Part shown: positions 32,957 to 53,240 of the stretch, in pieces
Numbering within the stretch: the first letter of the stretch is position 1
How the letters are laid out: each line of letters begins with the position of its first letter
Source: an archaeon
Lineage (GTDB): Archaea > Nanobdellota > Nanobdellia > Pacearchaeales > GW2011-AR1
Direction: 5' to 3'
DNA: 53,336 nucleotides
Assembly: GCA_043811855.1 (NCBI GenBank)
Contig: JBDRMT010000026.1
Coordinates: 1-53,336, forward strand
Notes under the pieces: model-generated
Database searches by the model: none
Told to the model about the DNA's origin: nothing
The model's input: only the letters and a program-made list of their open reading frames with translations
Translations under genes and position numbers: made by a program

Positions 32957-34456
32957 ATGAATTGGAAAATTTGGTTATTAATAATTTGTATTTTAGGATC
33001 AGTCTTAGCTATATTTCCTTTAGATTTTTCAAAAGGAGTTCAAGTAGTTTCAGTTGAAGATGGTTCACAAGCATTTGAACAAGGATTAAGACAAGGAGAT
33101 ATTATAATATCCATAGATGAACAAAAAATAACAAATTTTGAAGATTATAAAAATGCACTTTCAAATTTCCCAACAGATGAAAAAATAAGATTAACAATAA
33201 CAACTAAAACAAATTTGTTTATTCTTTTTGTTGATGAAGCTCCAAAAATATCTGTTAAAGATATAGAACCTCATAGAGTTAAGACAGGATTAGATTTATC
33301 AGGAGGAGCAAGAGCATTAATAACTGCAGAAGAAAAAGAACTTACAGATAGTGAGTTAAATGATCTTGTTGCAGTAACAAGTGAAAGATTAAATATCTAT
33401 GGATTAAAAGATGTTCAAATACGTCCTGTTAAAGATCTTTCAGGTAAAAATTTTATGTTAGTTGAAATAGCAGGTTCTACTCCTAATGAATTAGAAAAAC
33501 TTATTGCTCAACAAGGAAAATTTGAAGCAAAAATTGGAAATCAAACTGTTTTTGAAGGAGGAGATAAAGATATTACTTATGTCTCAAGAACAGGTGAACA
33601 ATCAGGTATTTATTCTTGTGATAAATCTCAAGAAGGAGAATCTTGTAGATTTAGATTTGCAATATCTTTAAGTGAAGAAGCTGCAAAAAAACATGCTGAT
33701 ATTACCTGTGAGTTAGAATTAAGTACTGAAAATCCTCAATATCTTGAACAAAAATTAGATCTTTATTTAGATGAAGAATTAGTAGACTCTTTATTTATTG
33801 GAAAAGATCTTAAATGCTCAGAAACAACTCAGATATCTATAAGTGGTGCAGGAACAGGTGTAACAAGAGAAGAAGCTTATGATAATGCTCTTGAAGATAT
33901 GAAACATCTTCAAACAGTTTTAATTTCTGGAAGCTTACCTTTTAAATTAAAAATAGAAAAATTAGATACTATTAGTCCTTTATTAGGAAAAGAGTTTATT
34001 AATACAATATTAATTGCAGGTATTATAGCAATTTTAGCAGTAGGAATTATTGTTTTTATAAGATATAGAAAAATAAAACTATCTTTAGCAGTAATTTTAA
34101 CAAGTTTAGCAGAGGTTTTGATTATACTTGGAATTTCTGCTTTATTTAGTAGAAATTTAGATCTTCCAGCAATAGCAGGTATTATTGCAGCAATTGGAAC
34201 AGGTGTTGACTCTCAAATTATAATTTTAGATGAATCTCAAATGACTGCTATGTCTTTAAAAGAAAGAATCAAAAGAGCTTTAGCAATCATATTAGGAACT
34301 TATGTAACAACATTATTTGCACTTCTTCCATTATTATGGGCAGGAGCAGGATTATTAAAAGGATTTGCAATAACAACAATAATTGGTATATCTATTGGTG
34401 TATTCATAACAAGACCAGCATTTTCAGAAATTGTTAAGAAGATTTTAAAAGATTAA
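32957..34456 (+). CDS. secD: protein-export membrane protein SecD
   Basis: It contains GLDLSGGARALI, a large extracytoplasmic domain and a C-terminal 5-6 TM block (GIIAAIGTGVDSQIII). It starts 1 nt after the secF stop. Confidence 0.85.
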   Translation: MNWKIWLLIICILGSVLAIFPLDFSKGVQVVSVEDGSQAFEQGLRQGDIIISIDEQKITNFEDYKNALSNFPTDEKIRLTITTKTNLFILFVDEAPKISVKDIEPHRVKTGLDLSGGARALITAEEKELTDSELNDLVAVTSERLNIYGLKDVQIRPVKDLSGKNFMLVEIAGSTPNELEKLIAQQGKFEAKIGNQTVFEGGDKDITYVSRTGEQSGIYSCDKSQEGESCRFRFAISLSEEAAKKHADITCELELSTENPQYLEQKLDLYLDEELVDSLFIGKDLKCSETTQISISGAGTGVTREEAYDNALEDMKHLQTVLISGSLPFKLKIEKLDTISPLLGKEFINTILIAGIIAILAVGIIVFIRYRKIKLSLAVILTSLAEVLIILGISALFSRNLDLPAIAGIIAAIGTGVDSQIIILDESQMTAMSLKERIKRALAIILGTYVTTLFALLPLLWAGAGLLKGFAITTIIGISIGVFITRPAFSEIVKKILKD

Positions 34457-35301
34457 ATCATACCTCTTTCTTCCATAAATCTTTTACAAAATTCAATATT
34501 TTTTTTAACACCTTCTTCTAAACTAACTTTAGGATTATATCCTAATTTTCTTATTTCAGAAATATCAACACTAACCTGTTGAGGTTGTGCAATTTCTTCA
34601 TCTTTAATAACTATCTTACTAGAACTTCCTGTTTCTTTAATAATAAACTCAGCTAAATCATAAACATTATGCTCTTGCTCTCCACTAATATTATATTCTT
34701 TATTCCATTCTGAATTTATCACTAATATCATAGCATCAATAAAATCATCAATAAAAGTAAAATCTAAAGTTTTTGTTTTTGGATTCCCATAAATTTCTAA
34801 ATCTCTTCCTAATAAAGCATTTGTAATAAAAATATACATTAATCTTCTTGTATCATCTTTAATAGACCCATAAACAGTTGAAGGTCTTATTATTAAATAA
34901 TCAATACCATAACATTCTTTATATGCTTTTGTTAATTCTTCACCATAAATCTTACTTGCAGTATAAGGGTTTTTTTCTTTGCTTAGAATTCTTGATGATG
35001 AAAAACAAATAAACTTTGGAATTTTATTTTTTCTGCAAAATTCTAAAACAGTTTGAAAATCCCTTACATTTTCCAAACCAAGCAGAGGATTTTCAATAAT
35101 TTGGTTTATTTTACAATTAGATGCACAATGAATAAACATATCAACATTAGCTCCTAGAGCTAAAGTAAAATTATTTAAAATTTTAACTTCTCTTCCTTCT
35201 CTCTTATCAATGCCCATTACAACTTTATGACCTTCTTGCTCAAGTCTTTTTTTTAAATAACTTCCAATTAATCCTCTATGTCCTGTTATTATTATATTCA
35301 T
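34453..35301 (-). CDS. NAD-dependent sugar epimerase/dehydratase (SDR family)
   Basis: Motifs MNIIITGHRGLIGSYL (Rossmann GxxGxxG) and the YxxxK pair YTASKIYGE. Confidence 0.8.
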   Translation of the reverse strand: MNIIITGHRGLIGSYLKKRLEQEGHKVVMGIDKREGREVKILNNFTLALGANVDMFIHCASNCKINQIIENPLLGLENVRDFQTVLEFCRKNKIPKFICFSSSRILSKEKNPYTASKIYGEELTKAYKECYGIDYLIIRPSTVYGSIKDDTRRLMYIFITNALLGRDLEIYGNPKTKTLDFTFIDDFIDAMILVINSEWNKEYNISGEQEHNVYDLAEFIIKETGSSSKIVIKDEEIAQPQQVSVDISEIRKLGYNPKVSLEEGVKKNIEFCKRFMEERGMI

Positions 35302-35322
35302 AAAAAAGCTTAATTACCAAAG

Positions 35323-35334
35323 TTTTTAAAGATT
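35323..35334 (-). promoter_or_regulatory. BRE/TATA-like promoter element (AATCTTTAAAAA on the minus strand) upstream of 34453-35301
   Basis: The motif sits 22-33 nt upstream of the ATG at 35301. The 16-nt string aaagtttttaaagatt and its spacing to the ATG are the same as upstream of gmd. Confidence 0.4.
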
Positions 35335-35336
35335 TA

Positions 35337-35795
35337 TTGACTGTTAGGATTATGTACATAAAATACCATATAATCATAGGAGCAATTGTATCAATAATTC
35401 TTTACTTATTATTTCCAATAACAATTATCCAAGCAGTAATAATCTTTCTAGCTTCTTTTTTAATTGACCTAGATCACTTCGGGCCTTATTATAAGGAAAC
35501 AAGAAATCTCAACCCAAAAAAAGCAACAAAATATTATATTGATTCAGAAAAAAAATGGATAAAAATGAATAAACATGAAAGAAAAACTTATCTTCATTTT
35601 TTAATAATCTTTCACGGATTTGAATTCTGGATAATCCTCCTAGTTCTTGCATTTTTCTTTCCAATATTCTACTTTATCTTATTAGGAATTGCAATTCATA
35701 TGGTTTTAGATTATATTGATATGATAAAACTTAAATATCCTTTTTATTGTAAGTTCAGTCAGGTTTATGTTTATCTTAAAAACAAGAAAAAGTAA
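35337..35795 (+). CDS. integral membrane protein (possibly DUF457/YdjM-like)
   Basis: It has four hydrophobic segments, with conserved-looking LIDLDHF and HMVLDY motifs. Confidence 0.5.
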   Translation: MTVRIMYIKYHIIIGAIVSIILYLLFPITIIQAVIIFLASFLIDLDHFGPYYKETRNLNPKKATKYYIDSEKKWIKMNKHERKTYLHFLIIFHGFEFWIILLVLAFFFPIFYFILLGIAIHMVLDYIDMIKLKYPFYCKFSQVYVYLKNKKK

Positions 35796-35804
35796 ATTTT
35801 TTAT

Positions 35805-36602
35805 TTAAGCTGCTTGAGCATGTTCTTTTAATCTTGCATGAATAGCATTAGTCAGTACATAAAGTTGTTCAGTTCTTCGTGAATCTAAATCAATTCTTGC
35901 ATCTTCAATTTTTCTTTGTGATGCTGGATGAGTATAATTAATTTTAAATCCAATAACTTTATATCCTTGAATAATAGCATCTGCAACAGGCACAAAAATA
36001 GATTCCCAATCATCTCCATATCTTCCATCATAAGTTAAAAAACAGTTTTCAAAAACTTTTCTAGTACCAATTCTAGGTCCACTCCAAAGATCAAGATTTT
36101 CTTCATAACCTAAATATTCATTTAACAATCTACTTACAGCTAGATTACCTGCGTTTTCTGCATATTGTTGTACTTTTGGATAAGAATTTAAAGGTCTCCT
36201 ATCTGGAATAACAAGATCAGCTCTTTCTTCAGCTATTGGTATAATTGTTTTCCATAATTCAGGAATAAAATTTGATTTTTCAGGTTCTGTCCATACAATA
36301 ACTTCATTACTAAAATCAAGACCCTCTCGAAATGCTTCTCTTCTTCCAACTCCCATTCCTGTCTTTTCTTGATCATAAATAGCTACTCCAAGAGCAGCAA
36401 ATTTATTTAATAATTTATAATGAGAACCTCCATCAACAACAACAATTCCATATCCTCTATCAGAAGCTCTTCTTATCATATTTAATGCTAACTCACTTCT
36501 AATTTTATCGTTAGCATTTCCTTCAGGATTAGGATACCAAGTAGTTGTAGCAATAGTAGTCTCTTCTGCAATTGCTCTTTCTAAATCACTAAATAATATC
36601 AT
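35805..36602 (-). CDS. hypothetical protein, possibly GT-A-like glycosyltransferase (compositionally atypical)
   Basis: IVVVDGGSHYKLL and VWTEPEK loosely resemble GT-A nucleotide-binding and acidic motifs. Composition is Lys-poor. The functional call is weak. Confidence 0.35.
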   Translation of the reverse strand: MILFSDLERAIAEETTIATTTWYPNPEGNANDKIRSELALNMIRRASDRGYGIVVVDGGSHYKLLNKFAALGVAIYDQEKTGMGVGRREAFREGLDFSNEVIVWTEPEKSNFIPELWKTIIPIAEERADLVIPDRRPLNSYPKVQQYAENAGNLAVSRLLNEYLGYEENLDLWSGPRIGTRKVFENCFLTYDGRYGDDWESIFVPVADAIIQGYKVIGFKINYTHPASQRKIEDARIDLDSRRTEQLYVLTNAIHARLKEHAQAA

Positions 36603-36651
36603 AATAAAAATCCATTTTTAATATTTTTAAATATTTAGATAGTATAATTGT

Positions 36652-38874
36652 CTAGAAATTCATTACTTTGTTTTTAGATTTAATATACTCAAGTGCTTTT
36701 CTTCTTTCATTTTTTAGTTGTTCATCTGTCATAACATCATGTTCAAATGTAAAATCTCTGTCTATTTCTCCTTCTTTTAAACCTAAAGTCATATTGTAAA
36801 TAGAAAAATCCTCTGTTTTTAATTTAATTCCATACTTTTTAGGGTTAGTATAAATATCTGATCCTGGATAAGGAACAAAAGTAGATACATTAACAGCATG
36901 AGGATGAGTTTTTTCAACAAACTGAATAAGTCTATCTGCAAAACCTGGTTTTTCTCCAGGAAGTCCAATAATAAAAAATAAACGAACCTTTATCCCTGCA
37001 TCATGAGTCATTTTAATAATATTTTCTGCTTGTTCTAAACCTATATTTTTACCAACTTTATCTAAAACCTCTTGTGTTGGAGATTCTATACCATAAGCAT
37101 TTTCCTCACAACCAGCTTTTTTTAAATGATAAAGAATTTCAGGGTCTACATAATCAACCCTAGTTTCTATTCTAAATCTAATTCCAAGAGGAGCAATTTT
37201 TTCACAAATTTCTATTAATCTCTTTTTATTTACTGTAAATGTGTCATCCATTATCCTGAAATTTTTAATATCATGATATTTAATAATCTCTTTTATTTCT
37301 TCAACTACATTATCAGGACTTCTAAACCTAACTCTTTGATGCCACATTATATCACTTGCACAAAACGAACAATTATTTGGACATCCTCTTGAGGTGATAA
37401 TTGCTGCTGTTGGACCTGCACCAACAAAAAGAGCATTTTCTGAAAAACAATTCTCAAAAGGAAGAAGATGTCTTGCAGGAAAAGGCACAGAATCTAAATT
37501 TTCAATAGGCTCTCTTTGATAAAATCTTTTATTATTGTTCTTATCTTCATAATCTTTTAATAAATCAAGAAAAGCAAGTTCACCTTCTCCAATAACAACT
37601 TTATCAAAAATATTACTTATTTTGTTTGAATTTGCAGTAGCATGTATTCCTCCAATTACTATCCATGAATCAGGATTTTTCTTTTTTATAATTTCTGCAA
37701 TTTTCTCAGATAAATAATAATCAGGAGTAGCAGCATTAATACCATAAACATCTGAATCTCCAATAAGTTTTTCAATCTCATCAAATTTTTTATTTCTTAA
37801 GTCTGTTATCTTTACTAAATATCCATTTTTTTCTGCAACTGCAGCTAAATAAAGAATTCCAATAGGAAGATTTCTCATGTCATCTCCAAGATAAGGATTT
37901 GAAGGAATTATTAGTTCTACTTTTGGTTTTAAAGGCTTTTTATTAAGTTCCTCTAAATACCATTTAATTGTTTTTCTTAAACCTTCTTTAAAACTTATTT
38001 TAGCTTTAAATCCAAATTCTTGCTCTGCTTTTGAAGTATCTAAACATCTTCTAGGTTGACCATCTGGTTTAGTTGTATCCCAAACAATTTCTCCTTGAAA
38101 ATTTGTTAGTTCTGCAATAATATTAACTAGCTCTTTTATTGTTGTTTCTTGCCCTGAACCAATATTAATAGGTTCGCTTTTATTATATCTCTCTATAGCT
38201 AAAATAATTGCATTAACAGCATCTTCCACATAAAGAAATTCTCTTGAAGCACTTCCAGTACCCCAAATTTCAACTTTATCTTTATTTTCTACAAATTTTT
38301 TAATTAAAGCAGGAATAACATGTGAATTTTCAGGATGAAAATCATCTCTAGGACCATAAAGATTAACCATTAACAAATGAATTGCATTAAATCCATATTG
38401 TTGCCTATAACCTTGGCTTTGAACCATCATCATTTTTTTAGTTAATCCATAAGCAGCATTTGTTTCTTCAGGATAACCTTCCCATAAATTTTCTTCTTTA
38501 AATGGAACAGGAGTAAATTTAGGATATTCGCAAACAGTTCCCATTCCATAAAATTTTTCAACATTATTTAACCTTGCATATTTTTGAATAAAAGTATTCA
38601 TTAAAATATTATTATCATAAACACTTCCAGGATTTTTTTTCATATAACCAATACCCCCACCATCAACAGCTAAATGAATAACTATCTGAGGTTTTGAATC
38701 TTCAAACAATCTCTTTACATCTCCTTCTTTTGTTAAATCATATTCATTTCTTGAAAATGTAAAAACATCTGCTCCTAATCCCTTCAACTTTTCAACTAAA
38801 AAACCTCCTACAAAACCCATGCCTCCTGTAACTAATACTCTCTTCTCACTCCAAAATTCTTTATCCATTTTCAC
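36652..38874 (-). CDS. fusion protein: GDP-L-fucose synthase/ColC-like SDR plus cobalamin-binding (class B) radical SAM domain
   Basis: The N-terminal roughly 315 aa resemble Fcl (VLVTGGMGFVGGF, AAYGLTKKMM, HVIPALIKKF). The remainder is a B12-binding-type domain (IGILYLAAV...VIGGIHAT) followed by the radical SAM motif SRGCPNNCSFC. It is a single open frame of 740 codons. Confidence 0.8.
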   Translation of the reverse strand: MKMDKEFWSEKRVLVTGGMGFVGGFLVEKLKGLGADVFTFSRNEYDLTKEGDVKRLFEDSKPQIVIHLAVDGGGIGYMKKNPGSVYDNNILMNTFIQKYARLNNVEKFYGMGTVCEYPKFTPVPFKEENLWEGYPEETNAAYGLTKKMMMVQSQGYRQQYGFNAIHLLMVNLYGPRDDFHPENSHVIPALIKKFVENKDKVEIWGTGSASREFLYVEDAVNAIILAIERYNKSEPINIGSGQETTIKELVNIIAELTNFQGEIVWDTTKPDGQPRRCLDTSKAEQEFGFKAKISFKEGLRKTIKWYLEELNKKPLKPKVELIIPSNPYLGDDMRNLPIGILYLAAVAEKNGYLVKITDLRNKKFDEIEKLIGDSDVYGINAATPDYYLSEKIAEIIKKKNPDSWIVIGGIHATANSNKISNIFDKVVIGEGELAFLDLLKDYEDKNNNKRFYQREPIENLDSVPFPARHLLPFENCFSENALFVGAGPTAAIITSRGCPNNCSFCASDIMWHQRVRFRSPDNVVEEIKEIIKYHDIKNFRIMDDTFTVNKKRLIEICEKIAPLGIRFRIETRVDYVDPEILYHLKKAGCEENAYGIESPTQEVLDKVGKNIGLEQAENIIKMTHDAGIKVRLFFIIGLPGEKPGFADRLIQFVEKTHPHAVNVSTFVPYPGSDIYTNPKKYGIKLKTEDFSIYNMTLGLKEGEIDRDFTFEHDVMTDEQLKNERRKALEYIKSKNKVMNF

Positions 38875-38937
38875 TTAGTTTAAAATAATATTCCATTTAT
38901 AATGTTTTTTCTTTTATAGAATATACCTTAATACTAT

Positions 38938-38951
38938 AATCTTTATAAATA
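38938..38951 (+). promoter_or_regulatory. BRE/TATA-like promoter element (AATCTTTATAAATA)
   Basis: It is centred about 25 nt upstream of the ATG at 38971. Confidence 0.35.
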
Positions 38952-38970
38952 ATCTTTCATACTATTTTTT

Positions 38971-39684
38971 ATGAAAACTAAGATTCATCATCATTATGCA
39001 GCAACAATTGTAAAACCTAATACAGGTTGTGATTTTTTCCTTGTAAAGTATGATGCTACTTATCCAATTGAATTTTTAAGAGGAAGAGCTAATCTTCTTG
39101 GAGGAAATGCTAGTACTGAAGATATATCTCCTCAAGCAACCTTAGAAAGAAACATAAGAGCAAAATTCTCAACAAAAGAATCAGGAAATGCCCCCCTTTT
39201 AGATCTTGTTGCACATCTAGGAAGTGTTCCAATTTGTGATACTCCAATTAGAAAAACCTCTTCAGGAGAGGGTAAAAAAGAAAGAATAAGAGAGGCTATA
39301 CTAACAGGCTTAAGACCTTATGAAGATTATATGTTAACAGTTCCTTGTTTAAATGAAGAAGGTTACAAACCTCCAATGATATTTAGTTGTTTTTTAACAA
39401 CCTTAGACCCTATAGATTTTAATTTAATAAGAGAATATCATAGAGAACATGGCACTCTATTAAATATAGGAGAATCTTGGATCTATAGATTAAATGATTT
39501 GACTGAAGAAAATCCTCTTACTGCTTGGGCAACAGGAATTGCAATAGGAGATTTTATGAAGGTTTCAAAGCCAATCCCCAACCCAGATCATGTATTAATT
39601 GAACATTTAGGACCTCCTAGAGAATTATATAGAGCTTATACAAAAGAATTTGATTATGATTTTCCAGAAGGAGGATTTAGATAA
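38971..39684 (+). CDS. hypothetical protein (possible degenerate Nudix-like fold; compositionally atypical)
   Basis: GGNASTEDISPQATLERNIRAKF keeps the G-x5-E-x7 spacing of a Nudix box but lacks the REUxEE core. This is a weak call. Confidence 0.3.
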   Translation: MKTKIHHHYAATIVKPNTGCDFFLVKYDATYPIEFLRGRANLLGGNASTEDISPQATLERNIRAKFSTKESGNAPLLDLVAHLGSVPICDTPIRKTSSGEGKKERIREAILTGLRPYEDYMLTVPCLNEEGYKPPMIFSCFLTTLDPIDFNLIREYHREHGTLLNIGESWIYRLNDLTEENPLTAWATGIAIGDFMKVSKPIPNPDHVLIEHLGPPRELYRAYTKEFDYDFPEGGFR

Positions 39685-39695
39685 TCTTCTTAAAA

Positions 39696-40841
39696 TTATA
39701 TTCTTTCACTTAAAATTTCTTTTATTGATTTAATCATATAATCTATTTTATCATTATTCATATATTGATTATTTGGAAGATAAATTCCTTTGTTATCAAT
39801 TATATCTGCCATAGTAGTTTTATCTTGCTTATAAAATTTATTCTTAAAAACAGGTTGCTTTAGTAAATTACCTCCAACAACAGGTCTACATTCAACTCCT
39901 TTTAATGGAAGGTTTTCTAAAACAAAATCTCTTTCCTCTTTACTTTTAAGAATAACAGCAAAAGAAAAAGAAGATGTTTCATTTAAATTAACTTTTTGAG
40001 ATTCTAAATCTAAATCTTTAATTTTTTCTAAAAAATAATTATGATTTTCAATTCTTTTTCTTATAAAACTATCTAATTTATTTAACTGAACTATTCCTAT
40101 TGATGCGTTTAAATTAGTATTTCTAAAATTATATCCAAAAACATCAAAAGTAAAATTTTTATTCTTATCAGGATATTTACTATGTCTTGTTGTACCTCTT
40201 GTCCAACCATGAGATCTCATAGATTTTAATAATTCATAAAATTCAAAATCATCTGTAACAACCATTCCACCTTCAATTGTTGTAATATGATGTCCAAAAT
40301 AAAAACTAAAACTTGCCATTTTTCCAAAATTTCCTACTTTAATTCCATTAAATCTAGCACCAAGACTTTCACAACAATCTTCTATTAAAATCAATCTATT
40401 TTTATCACAAATTTCTTTTATTTCTTCAATCTTAGCACTCTGACCAAGAAGATGAACTAAAAAAACAGCTTTTGTTTTTTCACTAATCATTCTTTTTAAA
40501 GAATTCACATCAAGATTAAAACTTTCATCAACATCACAAAAAACAGGATTCATTCCATTCTGAAGTATCGGATATACTGTTGTTGGCCAAGTAACACTTG
40601 GAACAATAATCTCATCATCATTTAAAAATCCACATCTTTGTTTTAATAAACTTATCATCAATAAATTTGCACTACTACCACTATTTACCATAACTGCATA
40701 TTTAGAACCATTCCATTCTGCAAATCTTTTTTCAAAATCTTCAACAACTCTACCATGAGTATACTCTTTGCTGTTTAAACACTCATTAACAGCTCTGATT
40801 TCTTCTTCACCAATAGAATCTTCCATTAATTTTATTTTCAT
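39696..40841 (-). CDS. PLP/PMP-dependent sugar 3-dehydratase of the DegT/DnrJ/EryC1 family (ColD/E1-like)
   Basis: It has the family fold (NSGSSANLL, IEDCCESLGA). At the position of the usual Schiff-base Lys the sequence reads SFSFYFGHHITTIEGG. His replacing Lys is the hallmark of ColD and CDP-hexulose 3-dehydrase E1. Confidence 0.7.
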   Translation of the reverse strand: MKIKLMEDSIGEEEIRAVNECLNSKEYTHGRVVEDFEKRFAEWNGSKYAVMVNSGSSANLLMISLLKQRCGFLNDDEIIVPSVTWPTTVYPILQNGMNPVFCDVDESFNLDVNSLKRMISEKTKAVFLVHLLGQSAKIEEIKEICDKNRLILIEDCCESLGARFNGIKVGNFGKMASFSFYFGHHITTIEGGMVVTDDFEFYELLKSMRSHGWTRGTTRHSKYPDKNKNFTFDVFGYNFRNTNLNASIGIVQLNKLDSFIRKRIENHNYFLEKIKDLDLESQKVNLNETSSFSFAVILKSKEERDFVLENLPLKGVECRPVVGGNLLKQPVFKNKFYKQDKTTMADIIDNKGIYLPNNQYMNNDKIDYMIKSIKEILSERI

Positions 40842-44006: not shown

Positions 44007-44058
44007 TCTAAAAACTCCTTCTTTTAAATATAAACATAGAATCTCTATTTATAAAAAG

Positions 44059-44070
44059 TTTTTAAAGATT
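44059..44070 (-). promoter_or_regulatory. third copy of the AATCTTTAAAAA element, in a divergent spacer
   Basis: It lies within the exact 21-nt repeat at 44050-44070. It is 53-64 nt from the minus-strand ATG at 44006 and about 66 nt from the plus-strand ATG at 44136, so its assignment is ambiguous. Confidence 0.3.
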
Positions 44071-44135
44071 ATTACATATTACTGATATAAATCTACCCTA
44101 GTTAATTATTTAAACTAATATATTTCTATAATAAA

Positions 44136-45563
44136 ATGAAGACTATTCTGACTGAAAAAAGAGAAGAAAAAAGAAAACAAAGGGTAATGTTTGCAATTGC
44201 TCCATGGGATATGTGGGGAGGAGAAGATGACAGCGGATATCCTACAGGAATAGCTTATTTAGCAGCAGTTTTAGAAAGAGAAGGTTATGAAGTTTCTGTT
44301 CTTAATCTAACATATACAAGATATGAAGATGTAATAGAGGATGTTAAAAGAAAAATAAAAGAAATAAACCCTGATATTTTTGGAATAAATATTATGACTA
44401 ATAGTAGGAATTCAGCATTAAAATTACTAAATGTTGTCAAAGAAATAAATCCAAATATTCCTATTATTGCAGGAGGAGTTCATACTACAATTTTACCTGA
44501 ACAAGTTCTTAATAATTTTCCAGTTGATTTTTTAGTTTTAGGAGAAGGTGAAATAACCTTAACTGAATTAGTTTCAACCTTAAAAGAAAAAAAACCTCTT
44601 AAAGATTTTAAAAAAATAAAAGGAATAGCATTTAAATATAATGGAGAGATTTTAACTACAGAAAAAAGAGAGAGAATTAGAGATCTTGATTCTTTACCTA
44701 TTCCAAAACATGAGCTTTTTTCAGAAATAATAGAAAAAAGTGGAGAAGCATCAGTAATGACTTCAAGAGGATGCCCTTATGCTTGCTCATTTTGTCCAAG
44801 TTCTGTTCATTGGGGAAGATATATGATTCAGAGAAGTGTAGAAAACGTTTTTAAAGAAGTACAGTATCTTATTGAAAGATTCCCAAGTTTAAAATCTATT
44901 TTCTTTTTTGATGATGAATTTATTTGTAATAAAGAAAGAGTTATAAAATTGTGTAAAATGATGATTGATAATAATGTTAATATTGGTTGGACTTGTTTAG
45001 GAAGAGTTACTTCAATAGATGAGGAATTAGTAAGTTGGATGAAAAGAGCAGGTTGCAAAGAAATGATTTTTGGTGTTGAAAGTGGTTCTCAAAAGATTTT
45101 AGATGCCTTAGGTAAAAAAGTTAAAATTCATCAGATTGTTGAAGCCTTTAGAATTTGTAAGAAATATAAAATCCCAACAAGATGTTTAACAATTATTGGT
45201 TTACCAGGAGAAAATTCTCAAACAGTTAAAGAAACAATTAAGTTAGTTAAAAAAGTAAGAGATACTTCTGAACCTGCAATATTACTTGTTTTTCCAGGAA
45301 CAAGAATCTATGAAATAGCCAAAGAAAAAGGAGTTTTAGATGATGAATACTGGTTATCTGATAAATTAGTGCCTTTTTATACTGGAGAACATTCAAAAAT
45401 GCAACTATGGTGGTGGTCTTTTAAAGTAGGATTTTATAGTCGTTTATATGCTAAACCCTTTAGCCTTTTTGAATTTTTTAATCGTAAAATCCTTCAAAAA
45501 TTAGATAATATTCAGGGTTTTAAAAGAATTTTTAAAAGATATGTAACAAATAAGACTGATTAA
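44136..45563 (+). CDS. cobalamin-binding (class B) radical SAM protein
   Basis: The B12-domain pattern is GIAYLAAVLE...IIAGGVHTT...VLGEGE. The radical SAM motif is SRGCPYACSFC. Confidence 0.85.
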   Translation: MKTILTEKREEKRKQRVMFAIAPWDMWGGEDDSGYPTGIAYLAAVLEREGYEVSVLNLTYTRYEDVIEDVKRKIKEINPDIFGINIMTNSRNSALKLLNVVKEINPNIPIIAGGVHTTILPEQVLNNFPVDFLVLGEGEITLTELVSTLKEKKPLKDFKKIKGIAFKYNGEILTTEKRERIRDLDSLPIPKHELFSEIIEKSGEASVMTSRGCPYACSFCPSSVHWGRYMIQRSVENVFKEVQYLIERFPSLKSIFFFDDEFICNKERVIKLCKMMIDNNVNIGWTCLGRVTSIDEELVSWMKRAGCKEMIFGVESGSQKILDALGKKVKIHQIVEAFRICKKYKIPTRCLTIIGLPGENSQTVKETIKLVKKVRDTSEPAILLVFPGTRIYEIAKEKGVLDDEYWLSDKLVPFYTGEHSKMQLWWWSFKVGFYSRLYAKPFSLFEFFNRKILQKLDNIQGFKRIFKRYVTNKTD

Positions 45564-45564: not shown

Positions 45565-47247
45565 ATGGTTATAAAGAATTCAAAAATAATAAGATATTTT
45601 AAGGATAAGAGAATTCTTATTGCAGGAGTAAATGTTGAAGATCAAGAAGCAAACAACATAGATTTACATTCATTATTTAAAACTGCATTCAAAAAAGTAA
45701 TAACCTTTGATTTAAGAAAACAATATTTTTTACATGGTAGCAAAACTTTAAATGAAAACTTTATAAATATTTTAAAAAAAGAAACTCCAGAGTATATACT
45801 TCTTATATTAGGTTATGATGAACTTGATTTAGAGTCTCTAAAAAAAATAAAAGAAATATGCCCAAATACCAAGGTTTTTATACAATATGGTGATGATCGA
45901 TGGAAATTTGATGACTGGGCAAGATACTACTCATTGTTCTCAGACTATGTATTAACTACAGAAAAAGAAAACTCTTATTATAAAGAAGATGGAATAAATG
46001 ATGTTTACCCCTGGTATGGAGTTGATATAAAACTTTTCAAACCTAATAATCTAAAAAAAATCTATGATACTTCTTTTATTGGATGCCCAATGTCAAATAG
46101 AGGGGATTATGTCAAATTCTTAACAGATAAAGTAAATATAAAATTATTTGGAGGAGGATGGGATGCATATCCAGAACTAAAAAAAGTTTATAAAGGCTAT
46201 TTAGATTCAGAAGAATATTCTAATACTATCAACAAGACTAAAATAAATATAAGTTTTTCAAAATCTTATTATCCTGGAAGAGGAGATACTCATTTTAAAT
46301 CAAGACTTTTTGAAGTTTTTGCTACTAACTCTTTTTTACTTGTAGAATATTATCCTCAATTAAAACTTTATTATAATAAGTACTATGATAAGATATCATT
46401 CAACTCAAAAAATGAACTTCTTAAAAAAATAAAATATTATCTTGAGAATGAAGAAGAAATGAAAAAAATGACAGAATATTTTTATAAAGAAACAATTAAA
46501 AATTATTCTTGGGAAAAACAATTAGAAAATCTACTACATATTCTATATAAAGATAGGGATAGAAAACCAAAAAAAGAACTTCCAAAATTAAAAAACAAGA
46601 TTATAGAATTAAATGAAGAAGACCTTAAAAAACCATCAGACTATTTAAAACAAAAAACAAAAAGTTTTGATTATATATGTTTTAAAAAAGATGAAACTTT
46701 ACCTTCAAAATATAAAACTTATTTTCAAATATATTCTTTAGAAAAATCTAAAAAACAAATAAGTTGCTGTGATTATCATCTTTATTCAAAAAAGCTAGGA
46801 GATTATATGCTTTTTACTGCAAAAAGAGCCTTTGAAACCATTGAAGATAAAAATAATTTTAATAAATTGTTAAATATAAATCAGATAGCAGTAACAAAGA
46901 ACTTCTTTTTTAATAATCTTAAAAAATTCAAAAAAATATTTAATAATGATACTATAGATTTTATTAATAATGATAATACTGTTTTTATTTCCATACCCTT
47001 AGTGCAAATTAAAAACCTAAGGATCAAGAGTGATAATGAGATTAATAAAGCTTTTAGAATGAAATTTTTTGATAAACTTTATCTATTAATTCAATCTAAA
47101 AAAATAATATCAAATAGATATATTTATGATTTTTTTATAGAATCTCTGTTTAGAGGAGATTTTTTGTTACTAAAGTCATTTTTTGGATATATCTTTAACA
47201 AAGAAAATTTAATAAGGCTTGTAGCAGTTAAAAGAAGTGTAAACTAA
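45565..47247 (+). CDS. CgeB-like (DUF3880-type) glycosyltransferase with extra C-terminal domain
   Basis: HFKSRLFEVFATNSFLLVEY and LKKIKYYLENEEEMKKM resemble the CgeB/Glyco_trans_1_2 C-terminal region. The last roughly 230 aa are unassigned. Confidence 0.5.
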   Translation: MVIKNSKIIRYFKDKRILIAGVNVEDQEANNIDLHSLFKTAFKKVITFDLRKQYFLHGSKTLNENFINILKKETPEYILLILGYDELDLESLKKIKEICPNTKVFIQYGDDRWKFDDWARYYSLFSDYVLTTEKENSYYKEDGINDVYPWYGVDIKLFKPNNLKKIYDTSFIGCPMSNRGDYVKFLTDKVNIKLFGGGWDAYPELKKVYKGYLDSEEYSNTINKTKINISFSKSYYPGRGDTHFKSRLFEVFATNSFLLVEYYPQLKLYYNKYYDKISFNSKNELLKKIKYYLENEEEMKKMTEYFYKETIKNYSWEKQLENLLHILYKDRDRKPKKELPKLKNKIIELNEEDLKKPSDYLKQKTKSFDYICFKKDETLPSKYKTYFQIYSLEKSKKQISCCDYHLYSKKLGDYMLFTAKRAFETIEDKNNFNKLLNINQIAVTKNFFFNNLKKFKKIFNNDTIDFINNDNTVFISIPLVQIKNLRIKSDNEINKAFRMKFFDKLYLLIQSKKIISNRYIYDFFIESLFRGDFLLLKSFFGYIFNKENLIRLVAVKRSVN

Positions 47248-47256
47248 TCTAATTTA

Positions 47257-48994: not shown

Positions 48995-48996
48995 AA

Positions 48997-49857
48997 ATGG
49001 TTTCAATAAAAAGTAAGATTTATAGTATGCTTCCAAAGAACATGCAAAAAAAAACAAAAAGTTTTTATTATGATTCTATTTTATATCCTATTAACAAGCT
49101 TAAAAATAAAATAAAATATGGTGAATCTGATTTTTTTGATACAATCTGTATAGAAACAACAACTCATTGCAATTTAAGATGTGATTTTTGCCCAAATAAG
49201 ATATATGAAAGAGGAACATTAAAAAATAAAAAACTTATGGATGAAGAACTCTTTAAAAAAATAATAAATCAACTTGCAGAAGTAAAATTTAAAGGAACAA
49301 TCATGCCTCATTTTTATGGAGAACCTCTAACAGATGAAAGACTTACTGATTGGGTTTCTTATATAAAAGAAAAACTTCCTAAATCAAGAATTGAAATAAA
49401 TTCAAACGGTATTTTATTAACTCCAGAAATTTATAAACAACTAATAAATGCAGGAGCAGATAGCTTTACAATTTCTCAATACACTCCTGAAATGACAGAG
49501 GGAATGAAACAAGTATTTGAATATCTTAAAAAAAGACCTAAAGAAAATAAAATAAATTATAGAGTTTTTAAGGAAGATACTGCTATTTGTAATAGGGGAG
49601 GAGAGATTGAAGTTAAAAAACCTTGGGAAAAACCCTTGTGTACTTATCCTATTAATTTTATAAATATTGATTATAATGGAAATATGGTTATATGTTGTAA
49701 TGATTATCATAGTTCTATAAAATTAGGAAATCTAAATCAAGAAAGATTAATAGATATCTGGTTTAAACCTTATTATAAAAATCTTAGAAAAAGCTTAAGA
49801 AAAGGAGTTTATGATCTTTTAATTTGCAAAAGGTGTGTAGGTGAAATCACCTCTTAA
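48997..49857 (+). CDS. radical SAM protein with C-terminal Cys cluster (SPASM/twitch-like)
   Basis: The CX3CX2C motif is CNLRCDFC. C-terminal cysteines include CNRGG, CTYP, VICCNDYH, CKRC. Confidence 0.8.
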   Translation: MVSIKSKIYSMLPKNMQKKTKSFYYDSILYPINKLKNKIKYGESDFFDTICIETTTHCNLRCDFCPNKIYERGTLKNKKLMDEELFKKIINQLAEVKFKGTIMPHFYGEPLTDERLTDWVSYIKEKLPKSRIEINSNGILLTPEIYKQLINAGADSFTISQYTPEMTEGMKQVFEYLKKRPKENKINYRVFKEDTAICNRGGEIEVKKPWEKPLCTYPINFINIDYNGNMVICCNDYHSSIKLGNLNQERLIDIWFKPYYKNLRKSLRKGVYDLLICKRCVGEITS

Positions 49858-49883
49858 TATCAATTCTCTCAACCCAATAGAAT

Positions 49884-49895
49884 AATCTTTAAAAA
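49884..49895 (+). promoter_or_regulatory. BRE/TATA-like promoter element AATCTTTAAAAA
   Basis: It is centred about 25 nt upstream of the ATG at 49917, which would give a leaderless or near-leaderless mRNA. Confidence 0.45.
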
Positions 49896-49916
49896 GGATT
49901 TTTATATTGTATAAAA

Positions 49917-51347
49917 ATGGCAAAAGTCTTACTAGTTCAACCAAACAAAAATCTGCAATTAAATACAACTTTCTATAAAACAGAAATGCCTATTAGTCTA
50001 GTTTATATGGGAACTGCAATTGAAGAGAAACACGATGTAAAAATCTATGATAGAAACTTAAATGTTAGTGATTCTGATTTTTTAAGATTTTTAAAAAGAT
50101 ATAACCCAGACATAATTGGTTTCACACTAATGACTTCTGAAATGATAATTGATTTTATGCATCTTGGAAAAATAATTAAAAAAGAATTTCCAGAAAAAAT
50201 AATTATTGTAGGAGGAGTGCATACAACAATAGAACCTGATTCAGTTTTAAATGAATCTTATGTAGATTATATAATAAGAGGAGAAGGTGAAGAAACATTT
50301 TTAGAGTTCTGCAATACTTTTGATAAAAATCCTAGAGATTTAAAGAAAATTAAAAATATTAATCATAATCCATTAAGACCTTTTGTAAATATGGATGATT
50401 TAGAACTTCCAAATTATAATTTAGTTAATTTAAAGAAATATGGAACTTATTTTATACATCTAAGTAGAGGATGTCCAGGTAATTGTACTTTTTGTTATAG
50501 TTGTGGAATGTGGGGGGTTAATAATAGGCCTTTAGTTAGAAGTTATGGGACTGAAAAAATAATGAATTTTTTTAAGAAAGTTGTTAATGAATATGATTTA
50601 AAGTATTTTACAATTTCTGATGATAATTTTATACCTTTTAAATCAAGAGCTATTAAGGTTTGTAATTTTTTAAAGGATTATAATGTACATTTTTTCTGTT
50701 ATGGAAGAGCAGATTATGTAAGTGATGAAATATTAAGACCTTTAAAAAAAGCAGGATGTCATACTATCCAAATAGGAGTTGAGTCTGGAAGTCAAAGAAT
50801 CTTAGATCTTCTTAATAAAAGAACAACAATAAAACAAAATGCTGATGCAATCGCTTGCTGTAAAAGAAATAAAATACACTGCGATGCTAGTCTTATGATT
50901 GGAATGCCAACAGAAACTAGAGAAGATTTAAAGATGACTCTAGATTTTCTTAAAAAAACAAGACCCAACACAGTAAATTTAAAAGTTTATAATCCTCTTC
51001 CTGGTCCTCCTTTATTTGATTATTGTGTTGAAAAAGGTTTATTAAAAAAACCAGAAAATCTAGAAGGTTGGAGTAAATGGGCAGGAGGTTTTTTCAGAGT
51101 CCAACATAATGTTAGTGAAATTCCAAATCAAGAACTTATGGCAGCTTCAAGAGAAGGAGAAAGTATAGATTATTATAAAAATAAGTTTAAAAAATTTATA
51201 TACTGGTTAAAAGCAGGAAATTGGGATTATGTATTAAGACAATCAAGATTACTTGTAAAGACTCCAAGAGGGTTAAAAATACCCTTAATAGGTTATTTAA
51301 AAGCTCCAGATACTTATGATGAAAATAAGCCTGAAAGAAATTTTTAA
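49917..51347 (+). CDS. cobalamin-binding (class B) radical SAM protein (paralog of 44136-45563)
   Basis: The B12-domain pattern is LVYMGTAIEE...IIVGGVHTT...IRGEGE. The radical SAM motif is SRGCPGNCTFC. Confidence 0.85.
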   Translation: MAKVLLVQPNKNLQLNTTFYKTEMPISLVYMGTAIEEKHDVKIYDRNLNVSDSDFLRFLKRYNPDIIGFTLMTSEMIIDFMHLGKIIKKEFPEKIIIVGGVHTTIEPDSVLNESYVDYIIRGEGEETFLEFCNTFDKNPRDLKKIKNINHNPLRPFVNMDDLELPNYNLVNLKKYGTYFIHLSRGCPGNCTFCYSCGMWGVNNRPLVRSYGTEKIMNFFKKVVNEYDLKYFTISDDNFIPFKSRAIKVCNFLKDYNVHFFCYGRADYVSDEILRPLKKAGCHTIQIGVESGSQRILDLLNKRTTIKQNADAIACCKRNKIHCDASLMIGMPTETREDLKMTLDFLKKTRPNTVNLKVYNPLPGPPLFDYCVEKGLLKKPENLEGWSKWAGGFFRVQHNVSEIPNQELMAASREGESIDYYKNKFKKFIYWLKAGNWDYVLRQSRLLVKTPRGLKIPLIGYLKAPDTYDENKPERNF

Positions 51348-51349
51348 AA

Positions 51350-51602
51350 AATGAAAAACAATAAATTAAAATTTAAAAAGAATATTAGGAATTTATACAA
51401 TCATAAGGGGATATGTGGTACTCTAGAAAGCAAGAGTAGCCTTGCGTGTAATGTTTATGAAATACTAATATAATCTATAAAATATGAATATAAAAGTTAA
51501 TATAAATAAAATAAATAACTCTTAAACTTACATGCTTAAACTACTCTTGCTAGTAAGATTATAAAATACTGAAACTAACACAAAACAATGAAAAACAATA
51601 AA
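51350..51602 (+). repeat. second spacer element, bounded by an exact 16-nt direct repeat that contains the start of the downstream GT gene
   Basis: aatgaaaaacaataaa occurs at 51350-51365 and 51587-51602. The internal block is homologous to 47298-47390. An internal 11-nt inverted repeat pairs agcaagagtag (51429-51439) with ctactcttgct (51541-51551). Confidence 0.8.
51351..51473 (+). CDS. candidate 40-aa peptide ORF inside the spacer element
   Basis: The product is MKNNKLKFKKNIRNLYNHKGICGTLESKSSLACNVYEILI*. It is a paralog of the ORF at 47259-47372. Confidence 0.35.
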   Translation: MKNNKLKFKKNIRNLYNHKGICGTLESKSSLACNVYEILI

Positions 51603-52802
51603 AGAAAAAAAAGAATCATATTTTACTTTGCAATGGAACCTCAAGTTTATCAATATAAATTTGCAAAGGCTTTAAGAGAAAGAGGTTATGAAACAATTTT
51701 ATTTACAATATCTGAAAAATATAAAATAAACTATGATTTTTATAACCAGGCATTTGATAAAATTTATTGTTCTGATTTTGAATTTAGAGGAGAAAATATA
51801 AAAAACATAAAATATCTTCTAAAGAAAGGACCCAAACTTCTTTATTTTTTAATAAAATCAAAACTAATAAAACCCGATGTAGTTATTGGTCTTTCAGGAA
51901 TAAATTGGCAAGTAAAATTTGCAAGAAAATATTTTTATAAAAAAATTCCTTTTATATTTTTTACTCATGATATGAGATCTCATTTTTTTGAATCAAAAAA
52001 AAGTGCTTTAAAACAAAATCTAGAATTTGAAATAGAAGCAGAAAAATATAATTTTGAAAATGCAGATGGAATAATTCATAAAGGAGCTCCAGAAGGGTTA
52101 GAAGCTATTCAAGGAAGAATCTTTAACAAGGTTAAATTACCAAAACTTCAACTAAGCTTTGAACCTTATTGCTCTAAAGAATTTCAAGTACCTATAAATA
52201 AAGATAAACTTTCAAAAAAAGATAAAGAATTACATTTAGTATATGTAGGTTTTTTTTGGACTAATCAAGGAGAAGCAGGTTCACATTTCTTTAACAAACT
52301 ATTAGACCAAAAAATTCATCTTCACTTATATATTACAGGAATAGGAGATGATCTTTCAAAAGAAGAAAAATTAGATTATCTTAATGATTTTTTTCCAGGA
52401 TGTAAAGAAAATAAATATTTTCATATTCATCCAACCCTTCCTCCCAAGGATTTAATTCCAGAAATTTCTAAATATGACTTTGGATTATTTCCATTGATTC
52501 CTCTTTCAAAAGAAAATATAGAACCAAAGTTTTGCGCATCAAATAAAATAGCTTCTTATTTAGAAGCTGGATTACCTCTAATAACTCCTGAGGAACTTAT
52601 TTTTTTAAATAAAACCTTAAAATCTTATGGATTAGATATAATTTATAATGATAAAAACATAATGGGTTTAAATAAGAGGTTAAAAAAATTAGATTACGAA
52701 GATTTAATTAATAAACTTAAAAAAATGAGAGAAGAATATAGTATAGAAAAAAATATTAACAAACTTCAAGAGTTTATTGAGGAGGTAATTAAAAATAAAT
52801 AA
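51588..52802 (+). CDS. GT-B-fold glycosyltransferase (GT4-like)
   Basis: The C-terminal CASNKIASYLEAGLPLITPEE resembles the GT4 sugar-donor-binding helix. The overall length and N-terminal Rossmann-like half also fit. Confidence 0.5.
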   Translation: MKNNKRKKRIIFYFAMEPQVYQYKFAKALRERGYETILFTISEKYKINYDFYNQAFDKIYCSDFEFRGENIKNIKYLLKKGPKLLYFLIKSKLIKPDVVIGLSGINWQVKFARKYFYKKIPFIFFTHDMRSHFFESKKSALKQNLEFEIEAEKYNFENADGIIHKGAPEGLEAIQGRIFNKVKLPKLQLSFEPYCSKEFQVPINKDKLSKKDKELHLVYVGFFWTNQGEAGSHFFNKLLDQKIHLHLYITGIGDDLSKEEKLDYLNDFFPGCKENKYFHIHPTLPPKDLIPEISKYDFGLFPLIPLSKENIEPKFCASNKIASYLEAGLPLITPEELIFLNKTLKSYGLDIIYNDKNIMGLNKRLKKLDYEDLINKLKKMREEYSIEKNINKLQEFIEEVIKNK

Positions 52803-52811
52803 AAATTAAAA

Positions 52812-53240
52812 ATGAAACCTCCCCAACAAAAAATTGCCCATTTTGATGATCATGCTAGATTTTATGATATAGTTATAAAAACAAATCCTAGATACCTAGC
52901 CATGTTAGATTTCCATCTTGCCTCATTAGATGCTTGTGATGATGTTTTAGATAGTGGAGCTGGAACAGGAAACTTAACTCTTCCACTTTTACAAAGAGGT
53001 AAAAGAGTTTGTGCTGTAGATAATAGTGATGATATGATAACTCAATTAAGAGAAAAATGTAAAGAATATTCTTCAAGATTTGAAATCAGAAAAAGAGATT
53101 TAACTCAACCTTTAGATTTTCCTGATGGATCTTTTGATGGAACTGCATCATGCTATGTTGTACCTTATGTTAATGAACCTGTTTATTTTAGTGAAAACTG
53201 TAGTATCCTGTTATTATTTCCCAACGATAAGTTAAATTGA
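52812..53240 (+). pseudogene. class I SAM-dependent methyltransferase, apparently 3'-truncated by IS insertion
   Basis: Motif I is VLDSGAGTGNLTL, and DNSDDM and DGSFDG are present. After ...CYVVPYVNEP the frame runs into unrelated sequence (ENCSILLLFPNDKLN*), only 4 nt before the stop codon (53245) of an oppositely oriented transposase. At 142 aa it is short for the family. Confidence 0.55.

Follow-up and report, generated by a model that had tools for sequence, protein, structure and literature searches.

Radical SAM enzymes in a probable cell-surface glycan island of a DPANN archaeon, including a GDP-sugar synthase-like protein fused to a class-B radical SAM domain

What would five radical S-adenosylmethionine (SAM) enzymes do among the sugar-nucleotide and glycosyltransferase genes of an archaeon? 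The question is raised by contig JBDRMT010000026.1, a complete contig of one metagenome-assembled genome (MAG) with a G+C content of 27%, all 53,336 bp of which were analysed and are referred to below as the window (protein accessions include MFH1358673.1, MFH1358677.1 and MFH1358682.1). A preliminary description of the sequence had proposed that the part beyond secFD is a glycan or deoxysugar cluster that may build a C-modified, for example C-methylated, deoxyhexose. The reading that is favoured here, and that we hold to be somewhat probable, is a cell-surface glycan island of a DPANN archaeon in which the radical SAM enzymes tailor the sugars. This reading is carried by what the analysis established: the identities of the genes, the fusion of a GDP-sugar synthase-like domain to a radical SAM domain, the presence of the catalytic residues, gene neighbourhoods that are kept in other genomes, and the recurrence of such loci among relatives.

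The five radical SAM genes

The following genes encode radical SAM proteins, the first of them a fusion to a short-chain dehydrogenase/reductase (SDR) domain.

36652 to 38874, minus strand: 740-residue fusion, SDR domain plus class-B radical SAM domain; CPNNCSFC at residues 498-505
41994 to 43106, minus strand: twitch-type radical SAM protein, 370 residues, Radical_SAM and SPASM matches; CNNKCPLC at residue 41
44136 to 45563, plus strand: class-B radical SAM protein, 475 residues, B12-binding 86 bits and Radical_SAM 99 bits; CPYACSFC at residue 213
48997 to 49857, plus strand: BtrN-like twitch radical SAM protein, 286 residues, match to BtrN in the PDB (4m7t) with E = 7e-30; CNLRCDFC at residue 58
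49917 to 51347, plus strand: class-B radical SAM protein, 476 residues, B12-binding 71 bits and Radical_SAM 78 bits; CPGNCTFC at residue 186

When all six-frame open reading frames (ORFs) of at least 70 residues in the window were scanned, the CX3CX2C motif occurred exactly five times and only in these genes, in agreement with the preliminary description. Each of the proteins matches Pfam Radical_SAM (PF04055) above its cutoff (54-99 bits, cutoff 29.5). The proposed division into three class-B and two SPASM- or twitch-like enzymes was borne out by Pfam as well. Three proteins have an N-terminal B12-binding domain (PF02310; 56, 86 and 71 bits for the 740-, 475- and 476-residue proteins, cutoff 32.1), and the 370- and 286-residue proteins match SPASM (PF13186; 40 and 46 bits, cutoff 21.5). 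The full SPASM pattern, CX2CX5CX3C with at least seven conserved cysteines, was found in neither of the two families, each of which has four conserved auxiliary cysteines, and both proteins are twitch-like with one extra cluster. Pairwise identity among the class-B proteins is 29-35%, and they are old paralogs.

Assignment to a well-known non-sugar family, which the preliminary description had named as an outcome that would tell against a role in sugar chemistry, was not obtained. None of the five proteins reached the curated NCBIfam cutoff of any family, the non-sugar families included. BchE, HpnJ, PhpK, QCMT, MiaB, HemZ, MoaA, PqqE and the maturases of ribosomally synthesised and post-translationally modified peptides (RiPPs) were all far under cutoff, and the best scores with non-sugar class-B families, among them also HpnR, ladderane, BzaD and RiPP methylases, were 84-188 bits against cutoffs of 360-750. 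The family model of AprD4 (NF033070) gave 71, 92 and 71 bits with the class-B proteins, its cutoff being 500.

The colitose-type operon and its fusion protein

The island consists of two divergent operons. The left one contains the fusion, of which the two domains are given separately, the 370-residue twitch gene and the following genes.

36652 to 37914, minus strand: class-B radical SAM domain of the fusion, B12-binding at residues 337-438 and Radical_SAM at residues 492-643
37942 to 38847, minus strand: GDP-L-fucose synthase/ColC-like SDR domain, residues 10-311 of the fusion; NF047922 264 bits, and PDB matches
39696 to 40841, minus strand: ColD-type GDP-4-keto-6-deoxymannose 3-dehydratase; ColD in the PDB (2gms) E = 7e-84, 285 bits
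40846 to 41916, minus strand: GDP-mannose 4,6-dehydratase (Gmd); TIGR01472 544 bits, cutoff 415
43110 to 44006, minus strand: RmlD-like SDR, 298 residues; Epimerase 90 bits, RmlD_sub_bind 72 bits; separated by 4 bp from the twitch radical SAM gene downstream

In the fusion, a linker some 8 residues long connects the SDR domain to the class-B domain. The SDR domain matched GDP-fucose synthases in the PDB with E-values of 1.5e-55 to 1e-50, and its residues T113, C115, Y141, K145 and H184 align to S107, C109, Y136, K140 and H179 of the E. coli GDP-L-fucose synthase; all five catalytic residues are thus conserved or conservatively replaced (Ser to Thr). Because the NF047922 score is below the cutoff of 500, ColC and fucose synthase are indistinguishable for this domain. 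Among the 120 best database matches, the two domains were combined in the fusion of the window only.

The Gmd and ColD genes lie immediately upstream of the fusion. The DegT-family protein has the motif FGHHITTIEGG, which puts a histidine at the position of ColD His188, where aminotransferases have the Schiff-base lysine. The GHHITT of the window aligns with SHHIAT of ColD, whereas other DegT proteins in the loci of relatives carry lysine there, and the protein is by these residues predicted to be of the true ColD type. Gmd, ColD and the ColC-like domain would together make up the canonical GDP-L-colitose route.

Unfused orthologs of the fused class-B domain (P0002-P0027, 50-68% identity) come from Micrarchaeota, Diapherotrites, Ratteibacteria and Omnitrophota. 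Glycan clusters surround such orthologs (53-63% identity) in all five loci that were inspected, and in three of the five (L170, L002 and L001) a fucose-synthase-like SDR is found beside or near the ortholog. In L170 (63% identity), the ortholog comes after Wzx and adjoins both a fucose-synthase-like SDR (293 bits) and an RfbH/ColD-type DegT protein with histidine at the His188 position, so that this locus carries the same trio as the window. In L002 (55%), the genes after the ortholog encode a fucose-synthase-like SDR (145 bits, its best match) and a member of the GT11 fucosyltransferase family. In L001 (58%), a fucose-synthase-like SDR (194 bits) is found within 5 kb of the ortholog, as is Gmd (488 bits). 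The fusion and the conserved neighbourhood together provide good evidence, at the level of sequence, that the fused-domain subfamily works on GDP-6-deoxyhexoses. A metagenome scan with fused-domain patterns (RGCPxxC[SA]FC) returned mostly distant class-B proteins of 28-35% identity and was not used for the ortholog neighbourhoods.

The closest known structures point to a more specific possibility. AprD4 (6fd2) was the best PDB sequence match of all three class-B enzymes (1e-16 to 1e-22), followed by OxsB, QCMT (9ccb), CysS, TsrM and TokK. An AF2 model was made of the radical SAM domain of the fusion only (predicted local distance difference test score, pLDDT, 90.9), and Foldseek again placed AprD4 first (template modelling score, TM, 0.75 over the whole length), ahead of CysS, TsrM, QCMT, TokK and OxsB. 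AprD4 is a sugar 1,2-diol dehydratase that needs no cobalamin, and in the apramycin pathway it works with a separate reductase. The class-B trio might accordingly be AprD4-like dehydratases or rearrangement enzymes that use no cobalamin and, with NAD(P)H reductases, make multiply deoxygenated and not C-methylated sugars. The pairing of AprD4 with its reductase is paralleled by the SDR fusion and by the adjacency of radical SAM and SDR genes in L002 and L170, and both AprD4 and ArsL have Rossmann-like domains yet bind no cobalamin (PMC12931638). However, the phmmer alignments to AprD4 span the radical SAM core only, whereas those of the 475- and 476-residue proteins to the cobalamin binders OxsB, QCMT, CysS and TokK reach the N-terminal domain. 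Furthermore, the Pfam B12-binding scores are well above threshold (56-86 bits, cutoff 32), NF033070 gives only 71-92 bits against 500, and 3-deoxygenation is already accomplished by ColD. We regard this explanation as unlikely, but as one to be reckoned with.

Besides methylation, class-B enzymes catalyse ring contraction, cyclisation and other reactions. C-methylation is the commonest of their reactions; GenK, GenD1 and MoeK5 are precedents with sugars, and Fom3 is one with a nucleotide-linked substrate (PMC12931638). Of the earlier proposal, the sugar or glycan cluster with radical tailoring is supported, while neither C-methylation specifically nor a dependence on cobalamin or its import was established; the best structural match is AprD4, and we put the probability of C-methylation well short of even.

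The right operon, its relatives and the host

Across the spacer, the right operon contains the two stand-alone class-B genes, the BtrN-like gene and the following features.

44007 to 44135, no strand: AT-rich divergent intergenic spacer of 129 bp between the two operons, presumed promoter region
45565 to 47247, plus strand: glycosyltransferase-like protein of 560 residues (GT560); Glyco_trans_1_2 69 bits
47417 to 48994, plus strand: Wzx-type flippase; Polysacc_synt 98 bits
51588 to 52802, plus strand: GT-B glycosyltransferase of 404 residues (GT404); weak Glyco_transf_4 match
52812 to 53240, plus strand: class-I SAM methyltransferase, 142 residues; Methyltransf_25 57 bits

The alignment of the 286-residue protein to BtrN is full-length (residues 46-280 against BtrN 24-255) and includes the CX3CX2C motif and the four auxiliary-cluster cysteines; C215, C233, C277 and C280 align to BtrN C169, C187, C232 and C235 and are invariant in the family alignment. 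The family comprises about 100 homolog clusters, many of them from DPANN MAGs. No 2-deoxystreptamine genes were found around the gene, the neighbours of which are Wzx and glycosyltransferases. A Cys-Cys doublet (CCNDY, residues 233-234) stands where BtrN has Cys187-Phe188 and is present in 58 of the 66 scorable homologs; the exceptions include the closest relative, L012, which has CS, and three bacterial homologs that keep the BtrN-type CF. HygY-type twitch epimerases offer an analogy for a cysteine that donates a hydrogen atom. By this analogy the extra cysteine might be such a donor, which would suggest an epimerase over a dehydrogenase.

The family of the 370-residue enzyme has invariant cysteines at C41/C45/C48 and at C268/C286/C326/C330, and those of its 25 homolog clusters that carry a source name come from DPANN archaea. 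The best PDB sequence match was DesII (5e-6), followed by BlsE (3.5e-5). When an AF2 model (pLDDT 89) was searched with Foldseek, SuiB had the lowest E-value (6e-16, TM 0.64), while the highest TM was that of DesII (0.66-0.69); BlsE gave a TM of 0.65/0.72 at a root-mean-square deviation (rmsd) of 4.3 A.

The recurrence of the locus was evaluated with the BtrN-like family as anchor, in 80 loci from species-representative genomes. Radical SAM genes were counted within 10 kb on either side with iterated hidden Markov models (HMMs), because SDRs and glycosyltransferases called for more sensitivity than phmmer gave. Even so, the results for DegT and SDR proteins were noisy, and only the radical SAM counts were used. 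The numbers of loci with 0, 1, 2, 3, 4, 5 and 6 radical SAM genes were 2, 54, 10, 3, 7, 2 and 2, respectively. The density that the preliminary description had called unusual therefore lies toward the high end of the distribution without being unique, at least four radical SAM genes being present in 11 of the 80 loci. The dense loci are mostly from DPANN archaea, with one locus each from Brocadia, Omnitrophota, Tectomicrobia and Bdellovibrionales.

Several relatives whose loci came with Pfam annotation resemble the window in the order of their genes. In L005 (Nanoarchaeota), secF-secD and a YdjM-like small ORF are followed by Wzx, the BtrN-like gene and glycosyltransferases, with six radical SAM genes in all. 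L088 has five radical SAM genes, L089 (Pacearchaeota) has five, again after secD, and L173 has three class-B and three SPASM genes. Orthologs of the right operon occur together in L088/L013, namely Wzx (49% identity), the BtrN-like enzyme (53%), the 475- and 476-residue class-B enzymes (55% and 50%) and GT560 (40%). Shared with L005, L089 and L173 are Wzx, the BtrN-like gene (not found in the stretch of L173 that was fetched) and GT404 (39-48%; the orthologs in L005 and L089 carry Gtf3_C). The Wzx orthologs (43-49% identity) adjoin the BtrN-like gene in L005 and L088 and lie close to it in L089; L173 has one too. Additionally, L173 has an ortholog of the 370-residue enzyme (47%). The closest relative, L012, has a different sugar pathway. 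Taken together, the comparison suggests a shuffling of modules at a fixed chromosomal site, as expected for surface-glycan loci. The preliminary description had also named a mosaic of unrelated operons in relatives as an outcome that would tell against it; such a mosaic is not what the relatives show, because they keep the radical SAM enzymes in glycan clusters.

Relatives of the 475-residue enzyme include two further fusions, P0258 (850 residues; GT4 glycosyltransferase with class-B radical SAM) and P0253 (743 residues; class-B radical SAM with FkbM methyltransferase). Its close database relatives P0239, P0240, P0249 and P0272 are 2000-2300 residues long, with four or five tandem class-B modules. 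The islands of relatives also contain thiamine-diphosphate enzymes like E1 dehydrogenases or transketolases, as two adjacent genes in L005 (15644-16796), L088 (18857-20618) and L089 (17561-18792) and as one gene in L173 (14255-15454). None is present in the window. These enzymes could add two-carbon branches to sugars.

The left end of the island and the remaining genes of the left operon region are as follows.

31885 to 34456, plus strand: secF-secD, SecD_SecF_C and PDZ domains, the left anchor of the island
34453 to 35301, minus strand: SDR epimerase/reductase, 282 residues; Pfam Epimerase 116 bits, no NCBIfam cutoff reached
35337 to 35795, plus strand: YdjM-like small membrane protein; PF04307 30.5 bits, cutoff 29
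35805 to 36602, minus strand: 265-residue protein, possibly a GT-A dolichyl-phosphate glycosyltransferase on weak AglJ-like evidence
38971 to 39684, plus strand: orphan ORF of 237 residues in the middle of the colitose operon, on the strand opposite to its neighbours

SecD of the window is 68% identical to that of the Pacearchaeota MAG L012; its identity to the SecD proteins from MAGs of Nanoarchaeota, Woesearchaeota and Pacearchaeota (including L005, L044 and L089) is 54-58%. Because of these identities the host is placed, by sequence, among the DPANN archaea of the Nanoarchaeota/Pacearchaeota type. A glycan island with radical SAM genes also lies downstream of secFD in the SecD relatives L012, L005, L044 and L089. 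Orthologs of the YdjM-like protein (36-38% identity) are found in L005, L088, L089 and L044, and the gene is conserved beside secD in relatives.

The other genes that the preliminary description had listed between the radical SAM genes (Gmd, the ColD-type 3-dehydratase, SDRs, glycosyltransferases, Wzx and a short methyltransferase) were all found, with some differences in the count. Its three SDRs are all present, but only the 282- and 298-residue proteins stand alone, the third being the SDR domain of the fusion. Of its two or three glycosyltransferases, those of 560 and 404 residues are credible. The 265-residue one is doubtful as an AglJ-like enzyme: its AglJ score (TIGR04182) is 24 bits with E = 1.8e-5 against a cutoff of 325 bits, a model of dolichyl-phosphate hexose transferases gave E = 1e-3, and neither a Pfam match nor an ortholog among the fetched loci was found. 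The 142-residue methyltransferase stops 96 bp before the contig end, is followed by the tail of a minus-strand gene and is probably truncated. The 237-residue orphan had no match in Pfam (E up to 10), NCBIfam, PDB sequences or the fetched loci, and no support was found for a Nudix-like reading of it made by eye; its G+C content at third codon positions (GC3) of 0.12 is like that of its neighbours, and it is probably coding and native. No orthologs of the 265-residue protein, the orphan, the 298-residue SDR or the methyltransferase were found among the fetched loci. Between the 476-residue enzyme and GT404, a 241-bp spacer contains a 40-residue ORF with two cysteines (51351-51473). Its start, MKNNK, repeats that of GT404, probably by chance or as a duplicated start.

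The genes of the island are tightly packed, with gaps of 2-241 bp, and GC3 is about 0.1 in all of them except the YdjM-like ORF (0.24). A horizontally acquired patch was ruled out by this uniformity; because GC3 is uniform apart from that ORF, there is no sign of recent import.

The left 29 kb of the window contain an operon of archaeal ribosomal proteins and RNA polymerase subunits, a 5S rRNA, tRNAs and a desulfoferrodoxin gene, together with a diversity-generating retroelement and a MacB-type ABC transporter. The retroelement (14883-17031) consists of a target ORF (14883-15659) with the variable repeat at 15517-15613, a retroelement RT-16 RNA (RF03019, 76 bits) at 15692-15841, the template repeat at 15844-15940 and the reverse transcriptase at 15970-17031. 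The repeats are 81% identical, and many of the differences are at template adenines. CARDB-domain proteins are encoded on either side (13864-14739 and 17051-17944). At the start of the contig (515-6005), genes for a Swt1-like HEPN protein, a tyrosine integrase, desulfoferrodoxin, a PD-(D/E)XK nuclease and a helicase may represent an integrated or defence element, and the desulfoferrodoxin suggests that the organism is an anaerobe. The gene for an 807-residue fusion (29266-31689) of a PfkB (adenosine-kinase-like) domain and S-adenosylhomocysteine (SAH) hydrolase (AdoHcyase, 491 bits) lies directly ahead of secFD and the island, whose enzymes consume SAM, and its product may recycle SAH.

Proposed chemistry, alternatives and known systems

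On the reading that we favour, Gmd would convert GDP-mannose to GDP-4-keto-6-deoxymannose, ColD would strip the 3-hydroxyl, and the fucose-synthase/ColC-like domain would epimerise and reduce the product. The fused class-B domain would act on the same GDP-6-deoxy or 3,6-dideoxy hexose. Its most likely reaction would be the methylation of an unactivated carbon; alternatively, an AprD4-style radical dehydration or rearrangement might give a keto product which the fused reductase would then reduce. The 370-residue twitch enzyme and the RmlD-like reductase may contribute a further radical redox or deoxygenation step. The right operon would be a module shared with Nanoarchaeota (class-B enzyme, glycosyltransferase, Wzx, BtrN-like enzyme, second class-B enzyme, second glycosyltransferase), in which the BtrN-like enzyme would oxidise, or epimerise, a secondary alcohol of a sugar and the class-B enzymes would alkylate or rearrange sugars. 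A lipid carrier would bear the growing glycan, which Wzx would then flip.

A wider proposal is more tentative and, in our estimate, more doubtful than probable. Nanoarchaeota/Pacearchaeota-type DPANN archaea may keep a hypervariable glycan island, often at secFD-ydjM, in which the anaerobic radical chemistry of several class-B and twitch enzymes, joined in relatives by thiamine-diphosphate enzymes that act on C-C bonds, builds undescribed C-alkylated, branched or multiply deoxygenated sugars. The fusion may be the first class-B enzyme specific for GDP-sugars, with channelling from the colitose/fucose synthase.

Several observations weigh against the favoured reading. A Pfam B12-binding match does not prove the use of cobalamin, because AprD4 binds none, and no cobalamin genes are present in the window. 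In NCBIfam, no match of the radical SAM proteins comes near its cutoff; for this reason the reaction types given above are guesses, and the substrates and products of these subfamilies are likewise inferred. The fusion was seen in one MAG contig only, and 3-deoxygenation, a role that its class-B domain might otherwise have had, is already accounted for by ColD. The 370-residue protein is also close in fold to RiPP maturases, SuiB having the lowest E-value. Furthermore, the window contains no ManB, no ManC and no recognisable colitosyltransferase and, with Wzx present, neither Wzy nor AglB; the contig ends at 53336, and the island may be cut short there. Finally, the left colitose module and the right module were together in no relative that was examined.

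The last observation is also the chief support for an accidental juxtaposition of modules that share no product, in which the truncated methyltransferase and the orphan ORFs would be decaying. The lack of orthologs of the 265-residue protein (GT265), the orphan (UNK237), SDR298 and the methyltransferase (MT142) in the fetched loci, and the shortness of the last, agree with this. However, GC3 is uniform (the YdjM-like ORF excepted), the gaps of 2-241 bp are short and the radical SAM motifs are intact; moreover, each module is conserved on its own, and surface-glycan loci normally differ in the modules that they contain. Juxtaposition is thus improbable.

Slightly less credit still is given to the possibility that the class-B or SPASM enzymes modify a lipid, such as a polyprenyl or dolichyl carrier or the membrane lipids, and not sugars. 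HpnJ, HpnR and the B12 radical SAM protein of ladderane lipids are among the best NCBIfam matches, and GDGT-MAS appears weakly, but the scores are 84-185 bits against cutoffs of 360-650. The two fusions, one with a GDP-sugar enzyme and one with a GT4 domain, instead favour sugars as substrates, no lipid biosynthesis genes are present in the island, and DPANN archaea generally lack lipid synthesis.

Least credible of all is the maturation of a ribosomal peptide or protein by some of the radical SAM enzymes, especially the two twitch ones, at a glycan locus by chance, for although SuiB leads the Foldseek E-values of the 370-residue model (SkfB, CteB and anSME are listed too), many NCBIfam matches are RiPP maturases and a 40-residue ORF with two cysteines lies at 51351-51473, those NCBIfam matches are far below cutoff, the BtrN homology is full-length (7e-30), DesII and BlsE have TM scores at least equal to those of RiPP maturases at lower rmsd, and both twitch families lie in glycan clusters in every locus inspected. 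A search for the partners of a RiPP pathway revealed no convincing precursor, RiPP recognition element, leader-peptidase or transporter gene, the small ORFs lying in AT-rich spacers.

The favoured reading, radical tailoring of surface sugars, has implications beyond this contig. Most of what is known about the tailoring of sugars by radical SAM enzymes comes from antibiotic pathways of bacteria (gentamicin, apramycin, butirosin and desosamine), and here the same types of enzyme appear, several together, in surface-glycan loci of ultra-small, host-dependent archaea. We know of nothing on the surface chemistry of such archaea, though their lifestyle depends on contact with the host cell. Because related archaea carry similar clusters, Nanoarchaeota/Pacearchaeota-type archaea probably make unusual surface sugars. 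The fusion names the likely substrate class of a subfamily that is found in DPANN archaea, Omnitrophota and Ratteibacteria, and a biochemical test of it would be simple to design. If the enzymes need cobalamin, scavenging of the vitamin is implied in an organism with a very small genome.

To our knowledge, no cobalamin-dependent radical SAM C-methyltransferase acts on GDP-sugars or cell-surface glycans. The words sugar, glycan, polysaccharide and GDP are absent from a 2026 review of B12-dependent radical SAM enzymes (PMC12931638). A literature search returned no paper on radical-SAM-rich DPANN glycan loci or GDP-sugar class-B enzymes; its coverage was incomplete, and it is weak evidence of novelty.

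Compared with known systems, the left operon is most like the GDP-L-colitose pathway of E. coli O55 and Yersinia O-antigens, with which it shares the Gmd equivalog, a full-length ColD with histidine at the His188 position, and the Cys/His pair for epimerisation and the Tyr/Lys pair for reduction in the SDR. It differs from that pathway in the fusion of the ColC-like domain to a class-B domain, in its archaeal host and in having no ManB or ManC. The BtrN-like enzyme has full-length homology, with all cluster cysteines aligned, to the 2-deoxy-scyllo-inosamine dehydrogenase of butirosin synthesis, but is encoded in a Wzx-type glycan cluster and not in an aminoglycoside cluster, and could be an epimerase. 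AprD4/AprD3, which carry out 3'-deoxygenation in apramycin synthesis, resemble the class-B enzymes as the best structural match and in the partnership with a reductase; unlike in that system, the partner in the window is a fused GDP-sugar SDR, and the N-terminal domains score well on Pfam B12-binding. DesII, which acts on TDP-4-amino-4,6-dideoxyglucose, and BlsE, which acts on cytosylglucuronate, have the highest TM with the 370-residue model (0.65-0.69), although its identity to them is only 14-16% and the window has no DesI-type aminotransferase partner. GenK, GenD1/GntE, MoeK5 and Fom3 have the same architecture of N-terminal B12-binding and radical SAM domains in a sugar or nucleotide context (PMC12931638), a likeness of architecture and not of sequence, and belong to bacterial antibiotic pathways, unlike the surface-glycan setting of the window. 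The parts of the island thus resemble known enzymes, namely those of the colitose pathway, BtrN, AprD4/AprD3, DesII/BlsE and the class-B methylases. Three features seem not to have been described before: several such enzymes together in one archaeal surface-glycan island, a GDP-sugar synthase joined to a class-B domain in one protein, and islands of this kind that recur behind secFD in DPANN archaea.

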